Shown: in pieces, positions 17,541-61,874 of the stretch
How the letters are laid out: every line of letters starts with the position of its first letter
How positions within the stretch are numbered: position 1 is the stretch's first letter
Assembly (NCBI GenBank): GCA_900539345.1
Contig: UQBS01000006.1
Location: 13,904 to 77,903 of the forward strand
DNA from: an uncultured Coriobacteriaceae bacterium
GTDB lineage: Bacteria; Actinomycetota; Coriobacteriia; Coriobacteriales; UMGS124
DNA: 64,000 nt
Direction: 5' to 3'
Made by a program: the position numbers and the translations under genes
Notes under the pieces: model-generated
Seen by the model: only the letters and a program-made list of their open reading frames with translations
What the model was told of the DNA's origin: nothing
Databases searched by the model: none

Positions 17541-17588
17541 GGCTCGCCACCTTCGATTGATTGCCGCGTCCCTCTAAATATCCGATTC

Positions 17589-17666
17589 GCATTTGACGGC
17601 ATTTACTTTCGGGTTTGGCGCAGTTTTACTTTCGACTTTGGCGGCATTTGACTTTCGGGTTTGGCG
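17589..17666. repeat. about 3.5 tandem copies of a 22-23-bp unit (GCATTTxACTTTCGxxTTTGGCG)
   Basis: Full units at 17599-17620, 17621-17643 and 17644-17666, plus a partial GCATTTGACG at 17589-17598. Lies in an AT-richer intergenic stretch upstream of fic. Confidence 0.85.
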
Positions 17667-17723
17667 ATTGGGGCAATCTGGCTTGCGTTTGTGAACGCCG
17701 AAAACCTTTGCTTTCCTGCTCAG

Positions 17724-17776
17724 AAAACAAAGGTTATTTGATAACCTTTGTTTTTGAGAGTCGAAAACAAAGGTTA
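17724..17776. promoter_or_regulatory. perfect 14-bp inverted repeat plus a third half-site (candidate operator) in front of the Fic gene
   Basis: AAAACAAAGGTTAT (17724-17737), TTG, then ATAACCTTTGTTTT (17741-17754). A third copy AAAACAAAGGTTA lies at 17764-17776, 12 nt before the ATG at 17788. Confidence 0.7.
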
Positions 17777-17787
17777 GGCGGCAGGCC

Positions 17788-19092
17788 ATGGGTGTGTACC
17801 AGTCAGATTATTGGCAGTCCTGCGGGTGGGGAATGAACCGGCGAGAGACGCAAAGTGGGACATACCATCCGTTCTTGCCCGACAAGCTGGCAGGGCTCGA
17901 TATCATGCTGACACCCGAGGCGGTCTCGGCCGTGACGCAGGCGCAGTCTGCCGTGTTGCTGCTCAACCAAGAGGCGCGCTTTCTGACCAATACAGAACCT
18001 CTGGCGCGCCTGCTGTTGCGTTCTGAGGCGTTGGCCTCCTCTCGCATTGAGGGTTTGCAAATGAATGCCGGCAGGCTGCTCGAATTTGAGGCGCTTGACG
18101 AGCTGGGCGTGTCGCATCGACTCGATGGTGTGGAGGCCGCGGTCATGGCAAATATCGCCGCCATGAGCGACGCGGTGGATAGCATCGGGGCCGGCGACTC
18201 GATTACGGTGAATGACATTCGTGCTGTAAATGCGACCTTGCTTCAAGGGTCGCACCTTGAGGATGAGGGCGGAGTGCTGCGCACGATCCAAAACTGGATC
18301 GGCGGCAACAATGTCAACCCGGTTGGCGCTGCCTACGTACCACCCCGGCCCGAACATGTCCCGGAGCTGATGGAAGACCTCGCCCAATTCTGCAACACGT
18401 CGCCCTTGCCGGCGATTGCCGTGGCGGCGATAGCGCACGCTCAGCTCGAAACGATTCATCCGTTTGCGGATGGCAATGGGCGGACGGGTCGTGCCCTTGT
18501 GCACATGTTGTTGCACCGTGCGGGCCTGACTCCGAACAGCGTCCCTCCCATCTCGCTTGTGCTGGCAACGGACAAGGCACGCTACATCAACAATCTCCCA
18601 GCGTATCGATGCGATGACGGGCGATATGAAGGGGCAGATGAAAAGGCCGCTGCTCTGCAAGGGTGTATCAGCGATTGGGTGGAGTACTTTGCCAACGCGG
18701 TGCTGCTTGCTTGCGGGCGCGCGCAGGAGTTTGAGCACCGTATTGCCGATATTCAGGAAGAATGGCGCGGCCGCGGCACGATTCGCAAGAATTCGTCTGC
18801 CGATGTGCTCATCGAGGTCCTGCCAGGCAACCCTGTTGTCAGCGTCGTTTCGGCCGCTCGCCTGACAAGTAAAAGCGTCCAGGCTGCGCGCCTGGCGCTC
18901 AAGCAGCTGGAGAGCATGGGCATCCTGGTGCAGAATGCCAAGAACCGCAAGAGCAACATCTATGTCGCGCAAGAAATTTTGGATGCATTCACGGCGTACG
19001 AGCGAGCTCTGGTGGTGCCTGGCGGCGATACGTCTTCAGAGAAACCCATGCGACCCGTGCCTCTGCGCGTCCCGCGAGACCGCCGGCCATAA
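17788..19092 (+). CDS. Fic-family protein (AMPylase-type), class II with N-terminal inhibitory helix and C-terminal winged-helix-like tail
   Basis: Fic motif HPFADGNGRTGRAL. Inhibitory motif SSRIEG matches (S/T)xxxE(G/N). The start is uncertain (17788 or the ATG at 17833). GC3 is visibly lower than in neighbouring genes. Confidence 0.88.
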   Translation: MGVYQSDYWQSCGWGMNRRETQSGTYHPFLPDKLAGLDIMLTPEAVSAVTQAQSAVLLLNQEARFLTNTEPLARLLLRSEALASSRIEGLQMNAGRLLEFEALDELGVSHRLDGVEAAVMANIAAMSDAVDSIGAGDSITVNDIRAVNATLLQGSHLEDEGGVLRTIQNWIGGNNVNPVGAAYVPPRPEHVPELMEDLAQFCNTSPLPAIAVAAIAHAQLETIHPFADGNGRTGRALVHMLLHRAGLTPNSVPPISLVLATDKARYINNLPAYRCDDGRYEGADEKAAALQGCISDWVEYFANAVLLACGRAQEFEHRIADIQEEWRGRGTIRKNSSADVLIEVLPGNPVVSVVSAARLTSKSVQAARLALKQLESMGILVQNAKNRKSNIYVAQEILDAFTAYERALVVPGGDTSSEKPMRPVPLRVPRDRRP

Positions 19093-41587: not shown

Positions 41588-41617
41588 CACGCATCCCTGC
41601 GTAGTTTCTCGCGACGT

Positions 41618-41668
41618 AAAGAGGACCCCTTTCCAGCGCATCCACGCCAAGGAAAGGGGTCCTCTTTT
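41618..41668 (+). terminator. strong intrinsic terminator (17-bp perfect stem)
   Basis: AAAGAGGACCCCTTTCC (41618-41634) pairs with GGAAAGGGGTCCTCTTT (41651-41667), ending in a T-run. Confidence 0.85.
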
Positions 41669-41701
41669 GTAGCTAAGTTTTGCTCGCCGATTACCTCAAG
41701 C

Positions 41702-41926
41702 CAGGTTCCGCATCCCACTAAAACGTGGGTTCTCGTCCGCAAGGCGCCGGGAGGCGATGCGCGCGGTGCGGGCCTTTGGCCTACTGGATGTACGTGAGCC
41801 TCCCGGGAACGCAGCGCATCAGGTTCCGCATTCCACCAAGAGCGGGTTCTGATGCACAAGGCGCGCAGGGCCGACGTGTACTGGAGTACTCTAGGTCCTG
41901 CGGAACGCAGTGCATCAGGTTCCGCA
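41702..41926. repeat. tandem intergenic repeat, two full units (118 and 96 bp) plus a truncated third
   Basis: Units start with CAGGTTCCGCAT at 41702, 41820 and 41916. They share GGGTTCT..CAAGGCGC and end in GGAACGCAG(C/T)GCAT. Confidence 0.8.
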
Positions 41927-44900
41927 TCATCCTAAAAGTGTGCCGTTGGAGAGAGCGTAGGTGTCGTCGGCTATGGCTCCCGCGCTTGCGCGGTGGGTTA
42001 CGATGACGACAGTCTTGTCGGCGCGGTTCTCCTGCAGTGCCTTAAGGACGCTTGCCTCGGAGAGGGCGTCGAGGTTGCTGGTGGGCTCGTCGAGTAGGAG
42101 CAGCGGCGCATCTTGCAAGAAGACGCGGGCCAGGCCTAGGCGCTGACGTTCGCCACCGGAGAGCGAGTCGCCCAGCTCGGCAAGTTGCGTGTCGAGGCCC
42201 TGCGGCAGGCGCTCCACAAGCTCGCGCAAGGCGGCCTTCTCGAGCGCCGTCATGAGCTCTTCGTCGCTCGCGTCTGCCTTGGCCACGAGGAGGTTCTCGC
42301 GGATAGTGGAGGCAAAGAGGAACGTGTCCTGCTCCATGAGGCCTTGCTGGCTGCGCAAGCTGGCGGTGTTCACGTCGCGCAGGTCCAAGCCGGAGATGCT
42401 CACGCGGCCGTTCTGGGGATCCCAGAAACGCATGAGGAGCTTGAGCAGGGTCGACTTGCCTATGCCGCTGGGCCCGGCGATGCGCACGACGCGCCCAGGG
42501 CGGATGTCGACGTCGACGTTGGAGAGGATCTCCTTGTCGCGATAGGCGAAGTTGACTTCGCGCATTGCCATGCCCTCAAAGCCCCCGACGTCGACGCCGT
42601 CGGTCACATCAGGCGTCTGAGGGGCCTCTTCGAGCAGGTCAAGCACGCGCGAACCTGCGGCGAGGGTCTGCTGCAGGGTGCTTCCCAGGGCGGCGACGGC
42701 CAAGAGCGGTCCGAAGGAGGCCATGAAGGTGCCTGCCGCCATGACGGCGCGGCCGAACTCGAGCGTTCCCTGCATGACGAACATCATTGCCAGCGCAATC
42801 ATTGCGACGTCGAGCGCAAGCACCACGGCGCCCGAGACGGCCATGGCGTTGGCACCGCGGCCCTTGAGCGTGCGCTCGGCTGAGGCAAGCGATGCCATGC
42901 GCTCGCTCAGCTCGTGGGTGCGCTGCTTCTGGGCGCCGAACTGGAGGGTCTCAGACAGGCCGCGCAGCGAGTCGAGCACGAAGGAGTTCATCTTGCCCAC
43001 CTGCTGGCGCAGCTCGAGGCCGCCCGTTGTGGTGTAGCGGGAGGAGCACCATGGCACGACGACGCCCACGCAGATGAAGCCGAGTGCTGCGAAGCCAACA
43101 AGCTGTGGAGCCTGAAAACCGATGAACACGAGCACGATGATGCTGACAGCAAGGGCAATCGCCGCAGGTGAGAGGGTGTGTGCGTAGAAGACCTCAAGCA
43201 GCTCGATGTCGGCGGTGACCAGGGAGACGAGGTCGCCTTTCTCCTTGCCCTCGAGTTTGGCAGGGGCAAGGCGGCGCATAGCGGCAAAGACCTTGTCGCG
43301 CACAAGCGCCAGCACCCTGAAGGCCAGGTAGTGGTTGCACAGCTGCTCGGCATAGCGCAGGGGTCCACGTGCAATGCCGCACACGACGGCGGCCACGGTT
43401 GCGACGCTCGCAGCAACCCAACACGCCTGACCCTCAAGGTCGAGCAGGGCAGAGGTGGCAAGGACCGTGATACCGATTGCGGCAAGGAAGCCGGCGACAC
43501 CGAGCACGACGGCGCAAGCGAGCACACCCAGCAGGGGACGGGTGAGCTTCACGAGCTTGAGCATGATGCGAACCTTGCCACGTTTGGGGGTCGCGTCACC
43601 CATGCGCGTAACCGCCTGCTGAGAAGGTGCGCCCTCGGCCGCCTGATGCACCTGCTCAGCGGCCTGCTTGTCTGCGCTTTCGCCACTGCGAGCAGAGAAG
43701 TCCTCAAGCTCTGCCTGACGTGCCCAAAGACGTGCGTAGGGGCCGTCCTGGCCCGCAAGCTCCTCGTGGATCCCCGTCTGCACGACGCGGCCGGCCTCGA
43801 AGACGTACACCTTGTTGCAGCCGCGCAGGGCAGCCAGGCGGTGCGACACCATGACGACGGTCTTGGTGCGCGCAAGCTCGGTCACGGCGTCGATGATTGC
43901 GGCCTCGCTATCTGCGTCGATGTTGGAAGTTGCCTCGTCGAAGATGTAGACGGGCGTGTCATGCAGCAGGGCGCGTGCCATGGCGAGGCGCTGGCGTTGG
44001 CCGCCCGAGAGGTTCGTGCCCTCGGCGCTGACGGGGGCGTCCAGGCCGCCGCTGCGACGCACGAAATCGTCGATGCGGCAGCGGCTGAGCGCATCCCACA
44101 GCTCCTCGTCGTTTGCCTGGGGGCGTGCCATCAACAGGTTCGAGCGCACGGTGCCGGCAAAGAGGAAGCTGCGAAAGCCCACGTAGGTCACCGTGTCGCG
44201 CAGGCTTTCGGCCGAGATGTCGCGCAGGTCGATGCCACCGATTGTGACGCTGCCGGTATAGCTGAGGTTGGCGCCTGTGAGGATGCCGGCCAAGGTCGAC
44301 TTGCCCGACCCGCTTGCGCCTGTGATGCCCACAAAGCCGCCGGGCCTTGCCGTGAAGTCGGCGTTCTGAAGCACGGTGCGGGTTCCGTCATAGGAGTAGG
44401 ACACGTTGCGGCATTCGATGCCCACCGAAGTGCAGGTGACGGCCTGAGTGCCGCGGGCAGGCTCGGGGGCGTCGATGATGCGGTACATGCGCTCGGCCGC
44501 GGCCATACCGCCTGTTGCCGTGTGGAAGAACGAGCCCAGCGTGCGCAGCGGAATGAAGAAGTCCGCCGCGAGGAACACAAAGGCGAACGCGCCGGCAAAG
44601 GTCACGGTGCCGGCCGCATAGGAGTTGAGCATCACGACGATGCCGGCTGCGGCGCCCGCAAAGGCAAAGATGTCCATGACGATCACGGAGTTCAGCTGCA
44701 TGGTGAGCAGGCGCATCGTGGCCTTGCGGAACTTCTCGGCCTCCTCGTTCATCCTGCGATGGCGCCCCTCATCGGCCCCGAAGACCTTGAGCGTGGTGAG
44801 ACCCTGGATGCTTTCCAGAAAGAGTGCGCCCAGGTCGGTGTAGGAGTGCCAGTAGTCGCCCATGATGCGCTTGGCGATCTTCATGACAGCCATGAGGGAG

Positions 44901-45412
44901 ATCGGGATGAGCGGCACGCAGCATAGGAGCACCACTGCGGCCGGGGTGCACAGTGGGGCCAGGCAGAAGAAGAGCGTAACCGAGGCAATGAGGGAGTAGA
45001 AGAGTTGCGGCAGGTAGTTGCCGAAATACGCCTCAAGCTGCTCGACGCCTTCGACGCAAAGCTGCGTCGCCTCGCTCGTGGCAACGGTCTCGCGATAGCT
45101 CGGTCCCATGCGCACGAGCTTGTCGTACACGAGCGTGCGCACGCGCTGCTTGGCCAAGGCCGACGCCGCCAGGCCTTGCTTGGTTGCCTGGGCTTGGCAA
45201 ACGAGCCTCACTGCCACGGCCACGACGGCCACGAGAAGCGTGCGAGCCAGGTCGATTCCTGTGGCGCCGCCTGCAAGCACGGATTGCAACAGTCGGCCTA
45301 CGCTCACGAACAGGACGACGTTGGCCAGCAGGGCCAGCCACTGCAGGGCAACGTTGCCGGCGATGTGGCGCATGACACCGGGAACGAGGGAAAACAAGCG
45401 TTTATCAAACAC
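41927..45412 (-). CDS. fused ABC exporter (two TMD-NBD halves), CydD/CydC thiol-exporter type
   Basis: 1161 aa. Walker A GASGSGKST and GPSGIGKST. Signatures LSGGQRQRLAMARAL and LSGGERQRLGLARVF. GTG start at 45412 after AGAGGA. Confidence 0.88.
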   Translation of the reverse strand: MFDKRLFSLVPGVMRHIAGNVALQWLALLANVVLFVSVGRLLQSVLAGGATGIDLARTLLVAVVAVAVRLVCQAQATKQGLAASALAKQRVRTLVYDKLVRMGPSYRETVATSEATQLCVEGVEQLEAYFGNYLPQLFYSLIASVTLFFCLAPLCTPAAVVLLCCVPLIPISLMAVMKIAKRIMGDYWHSYTDLGALFLESIQGLTTLKVFGADEGRHRRMNEEAEKFRKATMRLLTMQLNSVIVMDIFAFAGAAAGIVVMLNSYAAGTVTFAGAFAFVFLAADFFIPLRTLGSFFHTATGGMAAAERMYRIIDAPEPARGTQAVTCTSVGIECRNVSYSYDGTRTVLQNADFTARPGGFVGITGASGSGKSTLAGILTGANLSYTGSVTIGGIDLRDISAESLRDTVTYVGFRSFLFAGTVRSNLLMARPQANDEELWDALSRCRIDDFVRRSGGLDAPVSAEGTNLSGGQRQRLAMARALLHDTPVYIFDEATSNIDADSEAAIIDAVTELARTKTVVMVSHRLAALRGCNKVYVFEAGRVVQTGIHEELAGQDGPYARLWARQAELEDFSARSGESADKQAAEQVHQAAEGAPSQQAVTRMGDATPKRGKVRIMLKLVKLTRPLLGVLACAVVLGVAGFLAAIGITVLATSALLDLEGQACWVAASVATVAAVVCGIARGPLRYAEQLCNHYLAFRVLALVRDKVFAAMRRLAPAKLEGKEKGDLVSLVTADIELLEVFYAHTLSPAAIALAVSIIVLVFIGFQAPQLVGFAALGFICVGVVVPWCSSRYTTTGGLELRQQVGKMNSFVLDSLRGLSETLQFGAQKQRTHELSERMASLASAERTLKGRGANAMAVSGAVVLALDVAMIALAMMFVMQGTLEFGRAVMAAGTFMASFGPLLAVAALGSTLQQTLAAGSRVLDLLEEAPQTPDVTDGVDVGGFEGMAMREVNFAYRDKEILSNVDVDIRPGRVVRIAGPSGIGKSTLLKLLMRFWDPQNGRVSISGLDLRDVNTASLRSQQGLMEQDTFLFASTIRENLLVAKADASDEELMTALEKAALRELVERLPQGLDTQLAELGDSLSGGERQRLGLARVFLQDAPLLLLDEPTSNLDALSEASVLKALQENRADKTVVIVTHRASAGAIADDTYALSNGTLLG

Positions 45413-56711: not shown

Positions 56712-57031
56712 TTCGTTTCCTTCGACGAGGTTTTGGCGCGCATGTGCCATGCGATGATGCGCACAATGATGAAGATGATGGCAAAGAGGGCCGCGCTGAC
56801 GTCGGCGACCTCAAGCACGTAGGCGTTGTTCTCAAAGAGGGCGTAGAGCATGACGAGGGTGAACGCGACGGCAAGCGCGCCATTCACGACACTCAGCACC
56901 TTGATCAAAATGCGGCGGGCTTTGTCGCGCGTGCTCGTGGCCACAAGGAGGCCGTAGAGCAGCGCCGTCACGCCGGCCACGACTGCCAGCACGGGCAGCA
57001 CGCGAATGAGTCTGATGAGCACGTTTACCAT
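56708..57031 (-). CDS. small hypothetical membrane protein (3 TM segments)
   Basis: ATGA overlap with the tlyA start. SD GGGAGG lies before the ATG at 57031. Hydrophobic segments: VLPVLAVVAGVTALLYGLLV and others. Confidence 0.6.
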   Translation of the reverse strand: MVNVLIRLIRVLPVLAVVAGVTALLYGLLVATSTRDKARRILIKVLSVVNGALAVAFTLVMLYALFENNAYVLEVADVSAALFAIIFIIVRIIAWHMRAKTSSKETK

Positions 57032-57161
57032 GGGGCACCTCCCGCTTGCCGTTTGCATAGGATACTTGATGCGCACTGCCGCGCGTCTGTAAAAGCGGCC
57101 ATAAAAAAACGAAAGCCGCTCGACTCCTCATCGAACTGGCCTTCGTCCCTTGGGAGGGTGA

Positions 57162-57293
57162 ATGTATGTGCGAGGAAATGACCTCGCGATGGGCTGCAAT
57201 CCTTTGGATGCAACTGAAGAAATAGTAGCAAGTGTGATATATGCAACAATAGAACTGCGCAAATTGCCATATACTCATACCAAGTTGTACTAA
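57162..57293 (+). CDS. candidate 43-codon small ORF in the AT-rich leader
   Basis: The 11-nt motif CCTTGGGAGGG lies 3 nt before this ATG, and again 3 nt before the GTG of the downstream regulator. Translation: MYVRGNDLAMGCNPLDATEEIVASVIYATIELRKLPYTHTKLY. Below the ORF-track size cutoff. Confidence 0.3.
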   Translation: MYVRGNDLAMGCNPLDATEEIVASVIYATIELRKLPYTHTKLY

Positions 57294-57340
57294 CATGTAC
57301 CAACTATGCACAGTGTTGAGCGCTAGCCTTGGGAGGGCTT

Positions 57341-58381
57341 GTGGCTGAAAACATAGATGCCGCCGATCAGGCGCAGGCATTGCCCGCGCAGCGTATCGAG
57401 GCGACCGACTTGGGCTTTGCCCAAGGCGATGCCCTGCGCGTGGAGGATGTCACACGCATCCTGCACGTGAGCAGGAACACCGTATATAAACTGGCCCGCA
57501 CAGGTGAGCTGCCGTCGTATCGCGTGGGCAGGCAGATGCGCTTTCGCTATGACGACGTACGCGCGCGGCTTGAGGGCGTTGCTGCCAGCCAGGAGACGAA
57601 GGCCGCTGTTGCCTCGGGGGCAGACGAGCCGAGTGATGTGCCTGTTCCAGGCGACGTGCTCGATGAGGTACCGTCGTGGGTGCGTGGCTCCATCGTCGTG
57701 GGCGGCCAGGAAATCGTGGCTGACATGCTGGCGAACTACCTGGCAGGATTGGGTGTCAAAGCACTGCGCTGTCACACAAACGACTATATGAGCCTTGCGC
57801 GCATGTACACCGGTGGCGCTCATGCTGCGGTTGTGGGTCTGTGGAGCGAGCGCGACTGTGCCTACAATGCGCCGTATCTGCGCACGCTCCTGCCTGGTGT
57901 GCCTGCCATCTCGTTTAGGCTGTTCAAGCGCCAAGTTGGTTTCACGGTAGCCGCAGGCAACCCCCTGAGTCTCTATGAATGGGGCGACCTGCTCAAGTCC
58001 GGCGTTGTCATAGCGAACCGCGAACGTGGGGCGGGCCCCCGTGTGCTGCTTGACGAGAAGCTCAAGTATCTCGAGGCGCGTGCCGACGCTTTGGAAGGGT
58101 ACGACCGTCCTGCCGCCTCGGAACTGGCTCAGGCCCTCATGGTGTCGCGCGGTCTTGCAAACGTCGCTGTCACCTCAGCCAAGCCGGCCCGTCAACTGAG
58201 GGGTCTGGAGTTTGTTTCCATGCAGGAAGAAGCCGTTGACCTTGTGGTTCTCAAGACGCCTGCTACCGCTTCTTTCATCAAGGCTGCCCGCAGCCTTTTG
58301 CGCACAGCTGCCTTTAGGAGCGAGTTTGATACGACGCTGTATGAGACGAGACTTATGGGCGAACCCGTCTACGAATGCTGA
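57341..58381 (+). CDS. transcriptional regulator: excisionase/MerR-type HTH fused to a PBP-like (molybdate/tungstate-type) ligand-binding domain
   Basis: HTH VEDVTRILHVSRNTVYKLARTGELPSYRVGRQMRFRYDDV, then a ~230-aa periplasmic-binding-protein-like domain. Preferred start is the GTG at 57341 after GGGAGGG; the ORF track uses a TTG at 57329. Confidence 0.75.
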   Translation: MAENIDAADQAQALPAQRIEATDLGFAQGDALRVEDVTRILHVSRNTVYKLARTGELPSYRVGRQMRFRYDDVRARLEGVAASQETKAAVASGADEPSDVPVPGDVLDEVPSWVRGSIVVGGQEIVADMLANYLAGLGVKALRCHTNDYMSLARMYTGGAHAAVVGLWSERDCAYNAPYLRTLLPGVPAISFRLFKRQVGFTVAAGNPLSLYEWGDLLKSGVVIANRERGAGPRVLLDEKLKYLEARADALEGYDRPAASELAQALMVSRGLANVAVTSAKPARQLRGLEFVSMQEEAVDLVVLKTPATASFIKAARSLLRTAAFRSEFDTTLYETRLMGEPVYEC

Positions 58382-58414
58382 CGCGGGCCGCTGTGGCACA
58401 TCATCCGCTGCGTT

Positions 58415-58755
58415 GGATTGGGGCTTATGTACCTTAGTACACCGCGCCCCAATCCGCCTTGCGGCTGACGCACCACAGCGACCCGGGGAAGATTATGGGG
58501 GGCACGCCATCTGCGGCGTTGCTTTGAGGCTCGCGTACCTTAGTACGCCACGCCTCAAAGCGCCTTGCAGCTGACGCACCACAGCGACCCGGGGGAGATT
58601 ATTTGGGGGTTAGTGGAACGCCAGTACACCGCGCCCCAATCCGCCTTGTAGCTGGTGCACCACAGCGACCCGGGGAGATTATTGGGGAGTCGCGGTACAG
58701 TCAGTACGCTGCGCCCCGATCCGCCTTGCGGTTGACGCACCACAGCGACCCGGGG
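58415..58755 (+). repeat. four tandem copies of a structured 80-106-bp element (stem-loop plus a conserved ~33-nt tail)
   Basis: Stems: 58415-58424/58446-58455, 58521-58530/58552-58561, ~58603-58608/58634-58639, 58681-58687/58714-58720. Tails GCCTTG(C/T)(G/A)G(C/T)TG(A/G)(C/T)GCACCACAGCGACCCGGGG at 58456, 58562, 58643 and 58723. Confidence 0.85.
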
Positions 58756-58771
58756 GAGTTTGGCGGCATGA

Positions 58772-58811
58772 AAAAGGGCGCGCCTGCAATTATCTGCAGG
58801 TGCGCCCTTTT
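58772..58811. terminator. bidirectional intrinsic terminator between convergent genes
   Basis: AAAAGGGCGCGCCTGCA, loop ATTATC, TGCAGGTGCGCCCTTTT. 17-bp stem with one G-U pair, an A-run on the left and a T-run on the right. Confidence 0.85.
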
Positions 58812-58833
58812 GGTGCATAGACTGGTCGAGGTG

Positions 58834-60117
58834 CTACCTCGTGGCGTTCTCGGCGTTCATGGTCATGGTCTGGAAGCGGTGCTCCATCCAAGCGTCGGGA
58901 TAGTGCTCGTCGCAGAACTCCTCCACAGCCGTCTCAGCGGGGATGCCCACTTGGCGGGAGAACCAGCGGTCGTAGCTCACCAAGGTGAGACCGCCGTCTA
59001 TGATCATGAGTACCAGGGCCACGGTTGTGACGGCGTAGCGCCAGTTCCAGGGAATCTTGTGCACGAGGTCGAAGATGAGGGGCATGAGGTACTTCACCCA
59101 CACCAGGCCTAAGATGCCCCAGGCCGCCATGAAGGCGCCGTTCGTACGCCCGTCGATGGAGAGGAACGTGCCACTGTAATCCCACGCAGTGATGCCGAAG
59201 GCGAACTCCAGCAGGTAGCTCACCAAGAACTCGAACGCGCCGCCGATGAGGGCGCTCAGGAAGAAGATGGGAATCGGGTTCTTGTCGCGGATGCCGTTGA
59301 GGCCGATGGTCATGAGCACGGCGCCGAAACCATAGATGGGGGAGAAGGGGCCGTAGAGCATGCCCGCGCGGTCCATGTAGCCCGCACCCCTCACCAGGCA
59401 GAAGATGGTCTCGATGATGACGCCCAACACGCAGCAGATGACAAACGTCCAGAACAGGTTGAAGAAGGTGAGCTTGAAGGGGGCCTTGCCACCGTACTTC
59501 TTGAGATGCTCGAGACGCTCCTCTTCTCGGCTGCGCTCGTCGAGTTTGCGTAGTTTGCGTTCGAGAGCGCGCTCCTCGGCAAGCGAGGGGTCGAGATAGA
59601 TTTGCAGCACGATCATAAAGACGATGGGGATGCCCGTCGCGTCGAGGGCGTGGTTCACGCCGCTGTTCAGGATGTTGAGGATGAGCTGGGCCACCAGCAA
59701 CACCATGACGGTACGGGCGATCTGCGCAGAGTGGCGGCGCTTGTCTTTGACGAGCAGTACGCCCAGCGCGATGTCAAATCCCGCGATGAGTCCCGAGCTT
59801 GCGGCCAGGCAAATCAAGAGCGCCAGTACCGGCTTCTGCAGCGTGGTGCCGCCCGTGAACTGCGTGATGTCAATCTCGAAGACGAAGGCGAGGATGATGG
59901 CAAGAACGACGGCGAGCAGCTTCAGGATTTCGACGGCACCCCAAATGATCATGAGGATGCCGAAGACCTTGAGCGGCACGGGAACCTTTTTGGCCGGGAT
60001 GGCTTGGCCTTCGGTCACGATGGGCTTGCCGGGTTCGCAACCCTGTGCTTCAGCTGTCGGCGCGGCTTGTGGCGCATCAACAACTGCTCCGGCAACCTGC
60101 TTGTCGTCGGTCGTCAT
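58834..60117 (-). CDS. polytopic membrane protein; the C-terminal half matches the 'putative ABC-transporter type IV' (DUF1113/CmpB-like) family
   Basis: GPFSPIYGFGAVLMTIGL...LSALIGGAFEFLVSYLLEFAFGITAWDYSGTFLSIDGRTN is characteristic of that family. SD AAGGAGG lies upstream. Confidence 0.75.
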   Translation of the reverse strand: MTTDDKQVAGAVVDAPQAAPTAEAQGCEPGKPIVTEGQAIPAKKVPVPLKVFGILMIIWGAVEILKLLAVVLAIILAFVFEIDITQFTGGTTLQKPVLALLICLAASSGLIAGFDIALGVLLVKDKRRHSAQIARTVMVLLVAQLILNILNSGVNHALDATGIPIVFMIVLQIYLDPSLAEERALERKLRKLDERSREEERLEHLKKYGGKAPFKLTFFNLFWTFVICCVLGVIIETIFCLVRGAGYMDRAGMLYGPFSPIYGFGAVLMTIGLNGIRDKNPIPIFFLSALIGGAFEFLVSYLLEFAFGITAWDYSGTFLSIDGRTNGAFMAAWGILGLVWVKYLMPLIFDLVHKIPWNWRYAVTTVALVLMIIDGGLTLVSYDRWFSRQVGIPAETAVEEFCDEHYPDAWMEHRFQTMTMNAENATR

Positions 60118-60160
60118 ACAGTCGCCTCCTTGATTGTGAGGGGGAATCTACGATGGCTGA

Positions 60161-60409
60161 TTAACGATCGTCGTCATCGTCCTCGTCATCATCGTCGTCC
60201 CAGTCGTCATCGTCGTCCTCCCACCAGTCCTTGTCTTCCTCGACAGGGTGGTTGTAGAACATCTTGTGCGTCTTGCGCTCGGCGAGGAAGGCGATGAGGA
60301 TGAAAAGGAGCATACCGCCGATGATGAGGAACACGACGCCGTTCTCCATGCCGAAAAGCGTGAAATGCGACTCGGTTTCCCAACCGAACAGCCACAAAAA
60401 GAAATCCAT
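60161..60409 (-). CDS. small membrane protein with an extreme poly-Asp/Trp C-terminal tail
   Basis: 82 aa: MDFFLWLFGW...VVFLIIGGMLLFILIAFLA...EEDKDWWEDDDDDWDDDDDEDDDDDR. SD GGAGGACC lies before the ATG at 60409. Confidence 0.6.
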   Translation of the reverse strand: MDFFLWLFGWETESHFTLFGMENGVVFLIIGGMLLFILIAFLAERKTHKMFYNHPVEEDKDWWEDDDDDWDDDDDEDDDDDR

Positions 60410-60479
60410 AGGTCCTCCAGCTGTGGTAGTAACATGCGTGCGATAGCATACCCCCACATTAGGCCGCTTTAAGGGCTAA

Positions 60480-61874
<1,395 letters not shown>

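Follow-up and report, generated by a model that had tools for sequence, protein, structure and literature searches.

The four tandem hairpins that lie between two convergent genes in the 64,000-nt stretch of DNA analyzed here (the window) belong to a dispersed, non-autonomous family of palindromic repeats, of which they are a long-armed sub-lineage that has been amplified locally. The hairpin is maintained by compensatory change, the size of the array changes quickly, and the position and orientation of units relative to stop codons are strongly non-random. I read the array as a local head-to-tail cluster of a repeat family specific to a lineage of uncultured human-gut Coriobacteriales, whose units form hairpins in 3' untranslated regions (3' UTRs), and I put the probability of this reading at roughly 60%. 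I infer, more tentatively, the function of the units and the means by which they spread.

The array occupies positions 58382-58757 of the window and consists of four head-to-tail units of about 106, 106, 81 and 80 nt, running from the stop codon of one gene to a bidirectional terminator. The upstream gene (57329-58381, plus strand) encodes a transcriptional regulator with HTH_17 and PBP_like domains, according to the list of open reading frames, Pfam (PF12728 and PF12727) and its orthologues. Its stop codon is the TGA at 58379-58381; its start codon is uncertain (the orthologues are 346 aa long). Converging on it from the minus strand is a gene (58834-60117; open reading frame list and Pfam) for a membrane protein with an ABC_trans_CmpB domain, which by database gene calls is the neighbor in every orthologous locus. 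An earlier note on this DNA had described four tandem structured repeats between convergent genes, and these are plain in the sequence, in the output of Tandem Repeats Finder (an array of 80-nt period at 58542-58755, score 270) and in a repeat search, which found four copies spaced by 106, 81 and 80 nt. The 19-mer GCACCACAGCGACCCGGGG occurs exactly four times, as compared to 0.1 expected. The note began the array at 58411, which is too late: it begins at 58382, directly after the TGA, and what had been taken for a conserved 33-nt tail is really the 3' arm of an outer stem, the 5' arm of which (58384-58408 in unit 1, partial in unit 2) had been overlooked.

I will refer to the units of this array and their close kin as the long-armed subfamily and to the units found elsewhere as the main family. 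Twenty full long-armed units, taken from 10 assemblies, make up alignment A2, on which covariance model R1 is based; model R2 was made from 33 main-family units, none of them long-armed. All four units of the array lie on the plus strand. Unit 1 (58382-58488) is a full-length rod hairpin, as seen in the sequence, in folds and in scores of 120 bits with R1 and 62 bits with R2 (E 7e-15). Its outer helix joins 58384-58408 to 58461-58485, its inner 10-bp helix joins 58415-24 to 58446-55, and its apical helix joins TGTAC to GTACA. Unit 2 (58489-58595; 102 bits with R1, 49 bits with R2) has complete inner and apical stems and a partial outer 5' arm. The inner stems of the two units, GGATTGGGGC/GCCCCAATCC in unit 1 and GCTTTGAGGC/GCCTCAAAGC in unit 2 (58521-30/58552-61), are perfect over 10 bp, as the note had said and the repeat search confirmed. 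Units 3 and 4 are truncated, both lacking the outer 5' arm: unit 3 (58596-58676; R1 28.9 bits) has a degenerate apical stem and keeps its 3' arm, and unit 4 (58677-58756; R1 28 bits) has one T-G apposition in its inner stem.

The stretch that follows on the plus strand, AGTTTGGCGGCATGA (58757-58771), resembles, by comparison with two related loci (L007 and L012) and with the ends of main-family arrays, the family's linker and the beginning of one more left arm, and would then be a ragged distal end of the kind typical of these arrays. The strong bidirectional terminator that had been placed after the array is real. It is an intrinsic-terminator-like hairpin at 58772-58811, with a 17-bp stem, A5 upstream and T4 downstream, found by an inverted-repeat search and by folding, and it recurs in three orthologous loci (L002, L006 and L007); a simple terminator scanner did not list it. 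A scan of 57000-60500 for sigma-70 promoters and terminators found no promoter, on either strand, in the units or beside them, and so lends no support to independently transcribed small RNAs. The same scan flagged none of the units as a terminator; they do not have the form of a canonical intrinsic terminator, in which a GC-rich stem leads directly into a U-tract of 7-9 nt.

Three helices, outer, inner and apical, make up a complete long-armed unit, a rod hairpin about 105 nt long. The basic unit of the family as a whole is a three-helix rod of 84-106 nt, the helix sequences of which vary between copies while complementarity is kept. Both strands of the array region fold much better than shuffled controls do (z = -6.7 and -7.8). 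In A2, RNAalifold finds compensatory double changes at 17 of 31 pairs; 94.8% of cells are paired, a figure that falls to 82% with shuffled columns and to 27-45% with slid 3' partners, and there are 93 double-change cells where shuffles give 30.5. Compensatory changes are found at 14 of 28 pairs in the corresponding alignment of the main family (A3). The claim that structure is under constraint has held up, compensatory changes being abundant and far above both the shuffled and the slid controls.

It is the junctions between helices that do not vary. In the long-armed subfamily, GCGTTG of the 5' arm stands opposite GCCTTGC of the 3' arm, and GGCAC stands opposite GCACC; in the main family GAAC faces GAAC, and the apposition of GCGTT(G/C) to GCCTTG is common to both. 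Each of the two internal loops has the same 5'-to-3' sequence on its two arms, a two-fold pseudo-symmetry that would suit a dimeric binder. Between these invariant loops, the stems occur as discrete, perfectly complementary, freely recombining types, at least 7 for the outer stem and at least 10 for the inner. Units begin and end with GCGG.../...CCGC or CGGG.../...CCCG; GCGG/CCGC is all that is shared at the ends, the outer arms differing between copies. The foot of the hairpin is only 4 bp long, followed by a 3x3 internal loop. A short T-rich linker comes after each unit, that between units being 13 nt long and approximately GTTTTAGTGGGAT. Long-armed units are followed by GAGATTATTTGG or AGTTTGG, with no U-tract, and main-family units, past the 4-bp foot, by GTTTT(A)G. 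There is no consistent duplication around the units, and the left flank resembles the inter-unit linker. The motif GTAG is present only within an apical insertion of some units, where it tags a nested mini-palindrome.

The earlier note had also argued for a plus-strand RNA, on the ground that the G-U pair of unit 4 works only on that strand. The T-G apposition exists, but the argument from it fails: unit 1 has several C-A and A-C appositions, which are wobbles on the minus strand only, and a hand count over the helices of A2, read on the sense strand, gives 19 G-U cells and 22 A-C cells. The antisense RNA strand (relative to the upstream gene) folds better in 19 of 20 long-armed units, by a mean of 10.8 kcal/mol, and in 33 of 33 main-family units, by a mean of 7.6 kcal/mol, the 53 units being related by descent and so not 53 independent observations. 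It does so because the conserved "loops" of the sense strand are A-C and C-A appositions (AAC/AAC, CA/AC), which turn into G-U wobbles in the antisense strand. The asymmetry between strands is almost gone when DNA parameters are used. In 52 of 53 units, then, folding is weaker on the sense strand, contrary to what selection on a sense RNA predicts, and this, together with the near equality of G-U and A-C within helices, removes the argument from strand.

To what extent the array is peculiar to this locus may be judged from relatives. An exact scan for the 19-mer through 185,579 species genomes (one genome per species) found the orthologous locus in four uncultured Coriobacteriales metagenome-assembled genomes (MAGs), with 2-3 units, and three chance matches in other Actinomycetes. 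The scan thus suggested an element confined to a single locus, an idea overturned by the covariance-model matches elsewhere that are described below. The series of orthologous loci was widened through contigs encoding orthologues of the regulator. A species with 95% identity in the regulator has two units in an intergenic region of 263 nt. Another, with 82% identity (L012/13), has an intergenic region of 75 nt containing a relic, a short hairpin resembling the outermost stem plus linker. In a third, with 73% identity (L014-17), the regulator is identical in the four assemblies and the intergenic regions are 455, 217, 258 and 215 nt, amounting to 1 to 3.5 forward units. There, the convergent CmpB gene has one inverted unit right at its stop codon, sense to that gene; this unit is the sole hairpin 3' of the gene, and a T6 run follows it on the gene's strand. 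Copy number at the locus accordingly extends from 0 (the relic) to about 4.5 (3.5 forward units and one inverted), and one assembly (L006) has the window's array minus unit 1. The stop-proximal first unit is full-length in all 10 assemblies that have an array. From these comparisons, the array is old at the locus, dispensable, and unstable in copy number. All three stop codons are found at the same orthologous position of the regulator, and a SECIS or other recoding element was rejected on that account.

The ends of arrays are ragged, usually breaking off after a partial left arm, and chimeric units, with arms from two neighboring units, are common. The orthologue (L085) of a second array in the window, for example, consists of the left half of unit A joined to the right half of unit B. 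Such chimeras and ragged ends are the signature of unequal recombination or slippage. First units are intact in 28 of 31 cases and later units in 14 of 19, a weak trend only. The persistence of chimeric and truncated units means that any one unit is under only weak purifying selection.

The second array, of the main GCGGAACC... subfamily, lies at 41701-41938 on the minus strand, as judged from its sequence and from scores of 41.7 bits with R1 and of 117.6 and 58.9 bits with R2. It comprises one unit at 41842-41925, a chimeric unit with an apical insertion at 41725-41829, and a partial unit at 41701-41711; it begins 1 nt past the stop codon (41927-29) of an open reading frame of 1161 aa, the frame supported by GC3, and it is followed by a hairpin (41608-41668) that reads as a bidirectional terminator. 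With its filters off, R2 found just the two arrays in the 64 kb, a weak match at 1555-1648 being dismissed as lying inside coding sequence. In three assemblies of the 73% species (L014-16), R1 found copies at three further intergenic sites, at 4.3, 15.7 and 17.9 kb. The copies found by R1 have the termini GCGGAACC.../...GAACCCGC and share the GCGTTC/GCCTTG junctions and a GTAC-N4-GTAC apex. A scan of metagenomes with a pattern drawn from these motifs gave 120 loci. Of these, about 45 are genuine, tandem copies being present at many, and the remainder are chance matches. Besides the window's second array, homologous units stand at more than 20 unrelated loci in relatives. Among the contigs covered, the window has 2 arrays in its 64 kb, and L014-16 have 4 array loci within 18 kb. 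The homology of both subfamilies is established by the scores given above for units 1 and 2, since R2 was built without any long-armed unit. The single-locus status of the array and the dedicated structured RNA that the note had implied for this intergenic region are therefore not upheld: units follow many unrelated genes, and one orthologous locus lacks the array, the copy number of which differs from strain to strain.

The whole window gave no match to Rfam 15 at the gathering threshold, and permissive scans of both arrays gave only sub-threshold noise of miRNA-like hairpins, in agreement with the note, which had recognized no known RNA family. Ten matches to the family pattern were found in IMG/VR, and as R2 confirmed none of them, they point to no phage carrier. 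A Pfam scan of 79 genes adjacent to arrays found no recurrent transposase or recombinase, nor did the gene calls of loci L008-L017. The 79 genes are ordinary metabolic and regulatory ones, including those for molybdopterin oxidoreductases, flavoprotein reductases and LuxR regulators, and are presumably typical of Eggerthellaceae-like genomes. A literature search for a described repeat family of Coriobacteriia or Eggerthella found none. The family is thus undescribed in Rfam 15 and in the literature searched, and its individual features all have precedents in known families.

Equally regular is the placement of arrays with respect to genes. At about 22 of them, the first GCGG comes -1 to +11 nt (mode 6 nt) after the end of a frame that is 134-1375 codons long and has coding-type GC3. 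At most such loci the units are in sense orientation and upstream of a canonical terminator, as they are in both arrays of the window, and at the locus considered here the post-stop sense position is also supported by database gene calls. The stretch that precedes the first unit resembles the 13-nt linker and usually includes the stop codon. Arrays run head-to-tail, with inverted copies only where the units of two convergent genes face each other. There is one exception, a locus of L014-16 between the H2TH_5 and POR genes, where units are antisense to both genes and not post-stop, sitting between a terminator and the ribosome-binding site of the next gene; L008 and L012 have an empty site there.

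How does the family compare with known repeat systems? REP/BIME elements of enterobacteria and pseudomonads are mobilized by RAYT transposases, and the roles reported for REPs include stabilization of mRNA 3' ends, attenuation, and effects on translation within about 15 nt of a stop codon. Like them, the units described here are dispersed, extragenic, GC-rich palindromes, located 3' of a stop codon and ahead of the terminator or in the gap of a convergent gene pair; they form clusters that differ in copy number from strain to strain and are presumably co-transcribed. REPs, however, are 20-40 nt long with a GTAG or CGTC end tag (PMC3733652), and their clusters alternate in orientation, whereas the present units are 84-106 nt long, three-helixed, untagged and head-to-tail, with stems that vary while loops are conserved, and no RAYT was seen among the 79 neighboring genes. 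REPINs, which are REP doublets forming hairpins (Bertels & Rainey 2011, PMC3116915), are likewise symmetric units of about 100 nt in dispersed, non-autonomous families with hairpin-preserving changes. The arms of a REPIN are inverted copies of one conserved REP, however, while the arms here carry the same motifs rather than complementary ones and the stems differ between copies; tandem direct arrays and a rule of post-stop orientation are foreign to REPINs.

ERIC/IRU elements are imperfect palindromes of about 127 bp in transcribed intergenic regions with stable RNA structure, and BOX elements are built of modules, the internal ones in tandem and variable in number, again with a stable RNA structure. 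Both resemble the present family in these respects but belong to other phyla, have no sequence similarity to it and do not follow an orientation rule that abuts them to stop codons. Mycobacterial MIRU-VNTRs are head-to-tail intergenic repeats of 46-101 bp, oriented with transcription, beside stop codons, and polymorphic in copy number. The likeness lies in actinobacterial head-to-tail intergenic arrays near stop codons with strain-variable copy number, but MIRUs are not long hairpins and hold small open reading frames in frame with their neighbors. Coupled frames of the MIRU type were rejected here, the periods (80, 81, 97 and 106 nt) not all being multiples of three. Integron attC sites are imperfect palindromes of 60-140 nt that come right after a stop codon in fixed orientation, have structure more conserved than sequence, and are folded on the bottom strand. 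The RYYYAAC/GTTRRRY boxes of attC are absent here, however, as are cassette frames between copies and an integrase nearby, and identity with attC was rejected: the 5' end GCGGAAC faces GAACCCGC (AAC opposite AAC), the linkers are 13 nt long, and the neighbors are syntenic housekeeping genes.

A further actinobacterial precedent is TRIT, the "Tuberculosis Rho-independent terminator" described with RNIE, which is restricted to Mycobacterium, has 147 copies at a narrow distance from stop codons, and was suspected of having an unknown binding factor (PMC3152330). TRIT is likewise a dispersed, sequence-conserved palindromic hairpin. It is not as long, however, and extends into the coding end (around -8); most copies are single and bidirectional, and it has no apparent sequence relationship to the present family. 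As an observation on precedents, dispersal in 3' UTRs is known from REP and ERIC, proximity to stop codons from TRIT, polymorphic arrays from MIRU and BOX, and bottom-strand hairpins after reading frames from attC. The family lacks the defining marks of REP/BIME and of attC, and I file it under the general kind of dispersed structured intergenic repeats. The earlier note had named a match to a REP or MITE family as something that would speak against it; the unit is indeed a dispersed palindromic repeat in kind, but it matched no family described in Rfam 15 or in the literature searched.

The best reading, then, is a new REP/ERIC/TRIT-like dispersed palindromic repeat. Because units stand between a stop codon and the gene's own terminator, they would be co-transcribed with the upstream gene and fold as rod hairpins in its 3' UTR. 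The long-armed sub-lineage would have been resident at this locus since before the divergence of the species compared, its copy number drifting through unequal recombination or replication slippage between units, which would account for the truncated units 3 and 4, for chimeric units and for the differences from strain to strain. By analogy with REP/BIME, ERIC and TRIT, very stable hairpins stacked from stop codon to terminator may serve as a 3' barrier to exonucleases, as an auxiliary site of termination or pausing, or both. The foot of the first hairpin would fall within the footprint of the terminating ribosome and so could couple to translation termination. The likely effects of the hairpins, judged from such systems, could include a block to exonucleases, pausing or termination of RNA polymerase, and interference with the terminating ribosome. 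Weighing against the best reading are the poorer folding of sense RNA, the antisense units between the H2TH_5 and POR genes in L014-16, the survival of chimeric and truncated units, and the missing U-tract of the long-armed units, which the scanner passed over.

The alternative that fares best, though I consider it rather unlikely, is that a mobile element or recombination system akin to REPIN/RAYT, the PATEs of IS200/IS605 or attC uses the units as hairpin sites in single-stranded DNA, any effects on RNA being incidental. A protein, probably a dimer, would recognize the strand in its folded form by its two symmetric internal loops, and the stems would need only to pair. This agrees with invariant loops between stems that vary in perfect complementarity, with the same 5'-to-3' loop sequence on both arms, and with the reappearance at many loci of a small set of discrete stem alleles, which proliferating subfamilies would produce. 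It also agrees with a bottom strand that folds no worse than the top (and much better with wobble pairs), with the contrast between empty site in L008/L012 and filled site in L014-16, and with the REP-like, GTAG-tagged mini-palindromes nested in some units. Against it, the 79 neighboring genes and the gene calls of L008-L017 offer no recurrent enzyme, no consistent target-site duplications and no GTAG/CGTC end tags occur, and there are no attC R''/R' boxes, cassette frames or intI. The strand asymmetry, moreover, almost vanishes with DNA parameters, and units take the orientation of the gene beside them even where two genes converge (L014-17), which targeting to a replication strand would not produce.

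A more speculative proposal, which I think unlikely, would make the unit a new kind of strand-specific hairpin element aimed at stop codons, its symmetric loops (GAAC/GAAC, GCGTT/GCCTT) binding a dimeric protein on folded bottom-strand DNA or RNA. Candidates for such a protein are a recombinase or transposase placing units directly 3' of translated reading frames; or the binder might be a dedicated 3'-end ribonucleoprotein system, as was once suspected for TRIT.

Two other explanations I regard as decidedly improbable. One takes the units to be sequence-conserved termination or pause modules placed after stop codons, TRIT-like and possibly factor-assisted, with tandem copies reinforcing termination. 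Sense orientation and a narrow distance to stop codons, as for TRIT (PMC3152330), favor it, and so do GTTTT(A)G after main-family hairpins and the T6 that follows the inverted, sole hairpin after the CmpB gene in L014-17. A canonical terminator nevertheless comes after the array at most loci, including both in the window. The foot of the hairpin is a mere 4 bp before the 3x3 loop, the long-armed units have no U-tract and went unflagged by the scanner, and the precedent itself overlaps few mapped 3' ends, TRIT accounting for only 2-4% (bioRxiv 10.1101/2022.06.01.494293). The other supposes a neutral palindrome amplified by slippage, its complementarity kept by correction at the level of DNA (template switching within a strand or gene conversion from arm to arm) and without function. 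Ragged ends, chimeric and truncated units, rapid change in copy number, equal frequencies of G-U and A-C mismatches within helices, and the slightly lower intactness of later units are all in its favor. Palindrome correction, however, would erase the asymmetric loops, which are invariant across species (73-95% identity between orthologues) and across subfamilies, and position and orientation would not be expected to be so strongly non-random with respect to stop codons.

The earlier note's own reading, a locus-specific plus-strand RNA (a 3'-UTR-derived small RNA or cis element of the regulator) in four paralogous copies, has in its favor the strong covariation, the place of the array inside the regulator's transcription unit and the full-length stop-proximal unit in 10 of 10 array-bearing assemblies, but it is very improbable, being largely refuted by homologous units behind many unrelated genes and opposed by the relic in L012/13, by a range of 1 to 4 units between close strains, by a plus strand that is the weaker folder and by the lack of any promoter-like site in or beside the units.

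Read as a dispersed palindromic repeat, what had appeared to be a one-off structured RNA becomes a family with rules: a sense position after the stop codon, fixed loops with covarying stems, and unstable arrays. Such families shape the structure of 3' UTRs, the stability of mRNA and length polymorphism at the level of strains. They also confound the assembly of MAGs and screens for non-coding RNA, and they are usable as strain-typing markers in the manner of VNTRs. The covariance-model alignments A2 and A3 provide a ready route to annotating the family in gut Coriobacteriales genomes. That units adjoin stop codons, as mycobacterial TRIT also does, suggests that translation termination may be tied in some way to the hairpins at 3' ends in high-GC Actinobacteria.

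The repeat family forms another tandem array in the window, on the minus strand (41701-41938), consisting of two units and one partial. It begins 1 nt beyond the stop codon of a minus-strand ORF of 1161 amino acids (41927-45412) and is followed by a bidirectional terminator (41608-41668). Its second unit is chimeric, with its two arms mismatched. In some units the apical stem contains an insertion of 20 nt (GTAGGCCAAAGGCCCGCACC), among them one in the window (41725-41829, minus strand) and many from metagenomes (e.g., L026:4866-4969 and L094:6669-7005). The insertion is a mini-palindrome tagged GTAG, and in this respect it is reminiscent of classical REP elements, the mini-palindrome being nested here within a larger repeat element.

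The rule that units directly follow stop codons, in sense orientation, has a single clear exception, at a locus that is filled in three contigs of relatives (L014:4272-4381, L015:4170-4376 and L016:4285-4395) and empty in two others (L008:4316-4422 and L012:839-957). The units at the filled site have the terminator of an H2TH_5 gene on one side and the ribosome-binding site of a POR gene on the other, and they are oriented antisense to both. At this locus the strand that folds better is the one within the POR operon's 5' UTR.

The window also contains repeats of other kinds. The intergenic region (17541-17787) upstream of the ORF at 17788-19092 contains a 23-nt direct repeat resembling TTTGGCGGCATTTGACTTTCGGG, present in 3.6 copies (17586-17666), and, further downstream, three instances of AAAACAAAGGTTA, two of which are arranged as a perfect palindrome. 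The combination has the appearance of a multi-site operator or an iteron-like region. A TCG/TCA-rich triplet repeat with periods of 3, 9 and 18 (60167-60223) falls inside minus-strand ORFs immediately upstream of the CmpB gene, where its product is probably an acidic segment of low complexity.

The species with 73% regulator identity has an inverted copy of the unit directly next to the stop codon of its convergent CmpB gene (L014:11394-11504, L015:11157-11267, L016:11198-11308 and L017:2028-2130), followed on the CmpB-gene strand by a run of six T's, in the same place as the compact terminator of the window (58772-58811). That terminator (AAAAAGGGCGCGCCTGCA...TGCAGGTGCGCCCTTTT) is similar to the outermost stem of the inverted unit and is possibly a collapsed remnant; it was matched by neither covariance model. 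Where the orthologous intergenic region lacks an array (L012:7556-7630 and L013:7556-7630), a 12-bp hairpin (CGAAGGCCCCTGGCAC/ACCAGAGGCCTTCG) is still present, followed by GTTTTGAGAGATG, an arrangement resembling the repeat's outer stem and linker once an internal deletion has occurred.

Finally, orthologous post-stop sites in two related contigs (L046:1112-1260 and L132:680-830) hold one unit each, with differing stem types: CTCGTCCGC/CCGGGAGGC in the former versus CTGATGCGC/CGCAGGACC in the latter. This difference implies that units turn over at a fixed site, by differential loss from a larger array, by gene conversion or by re-insertion.
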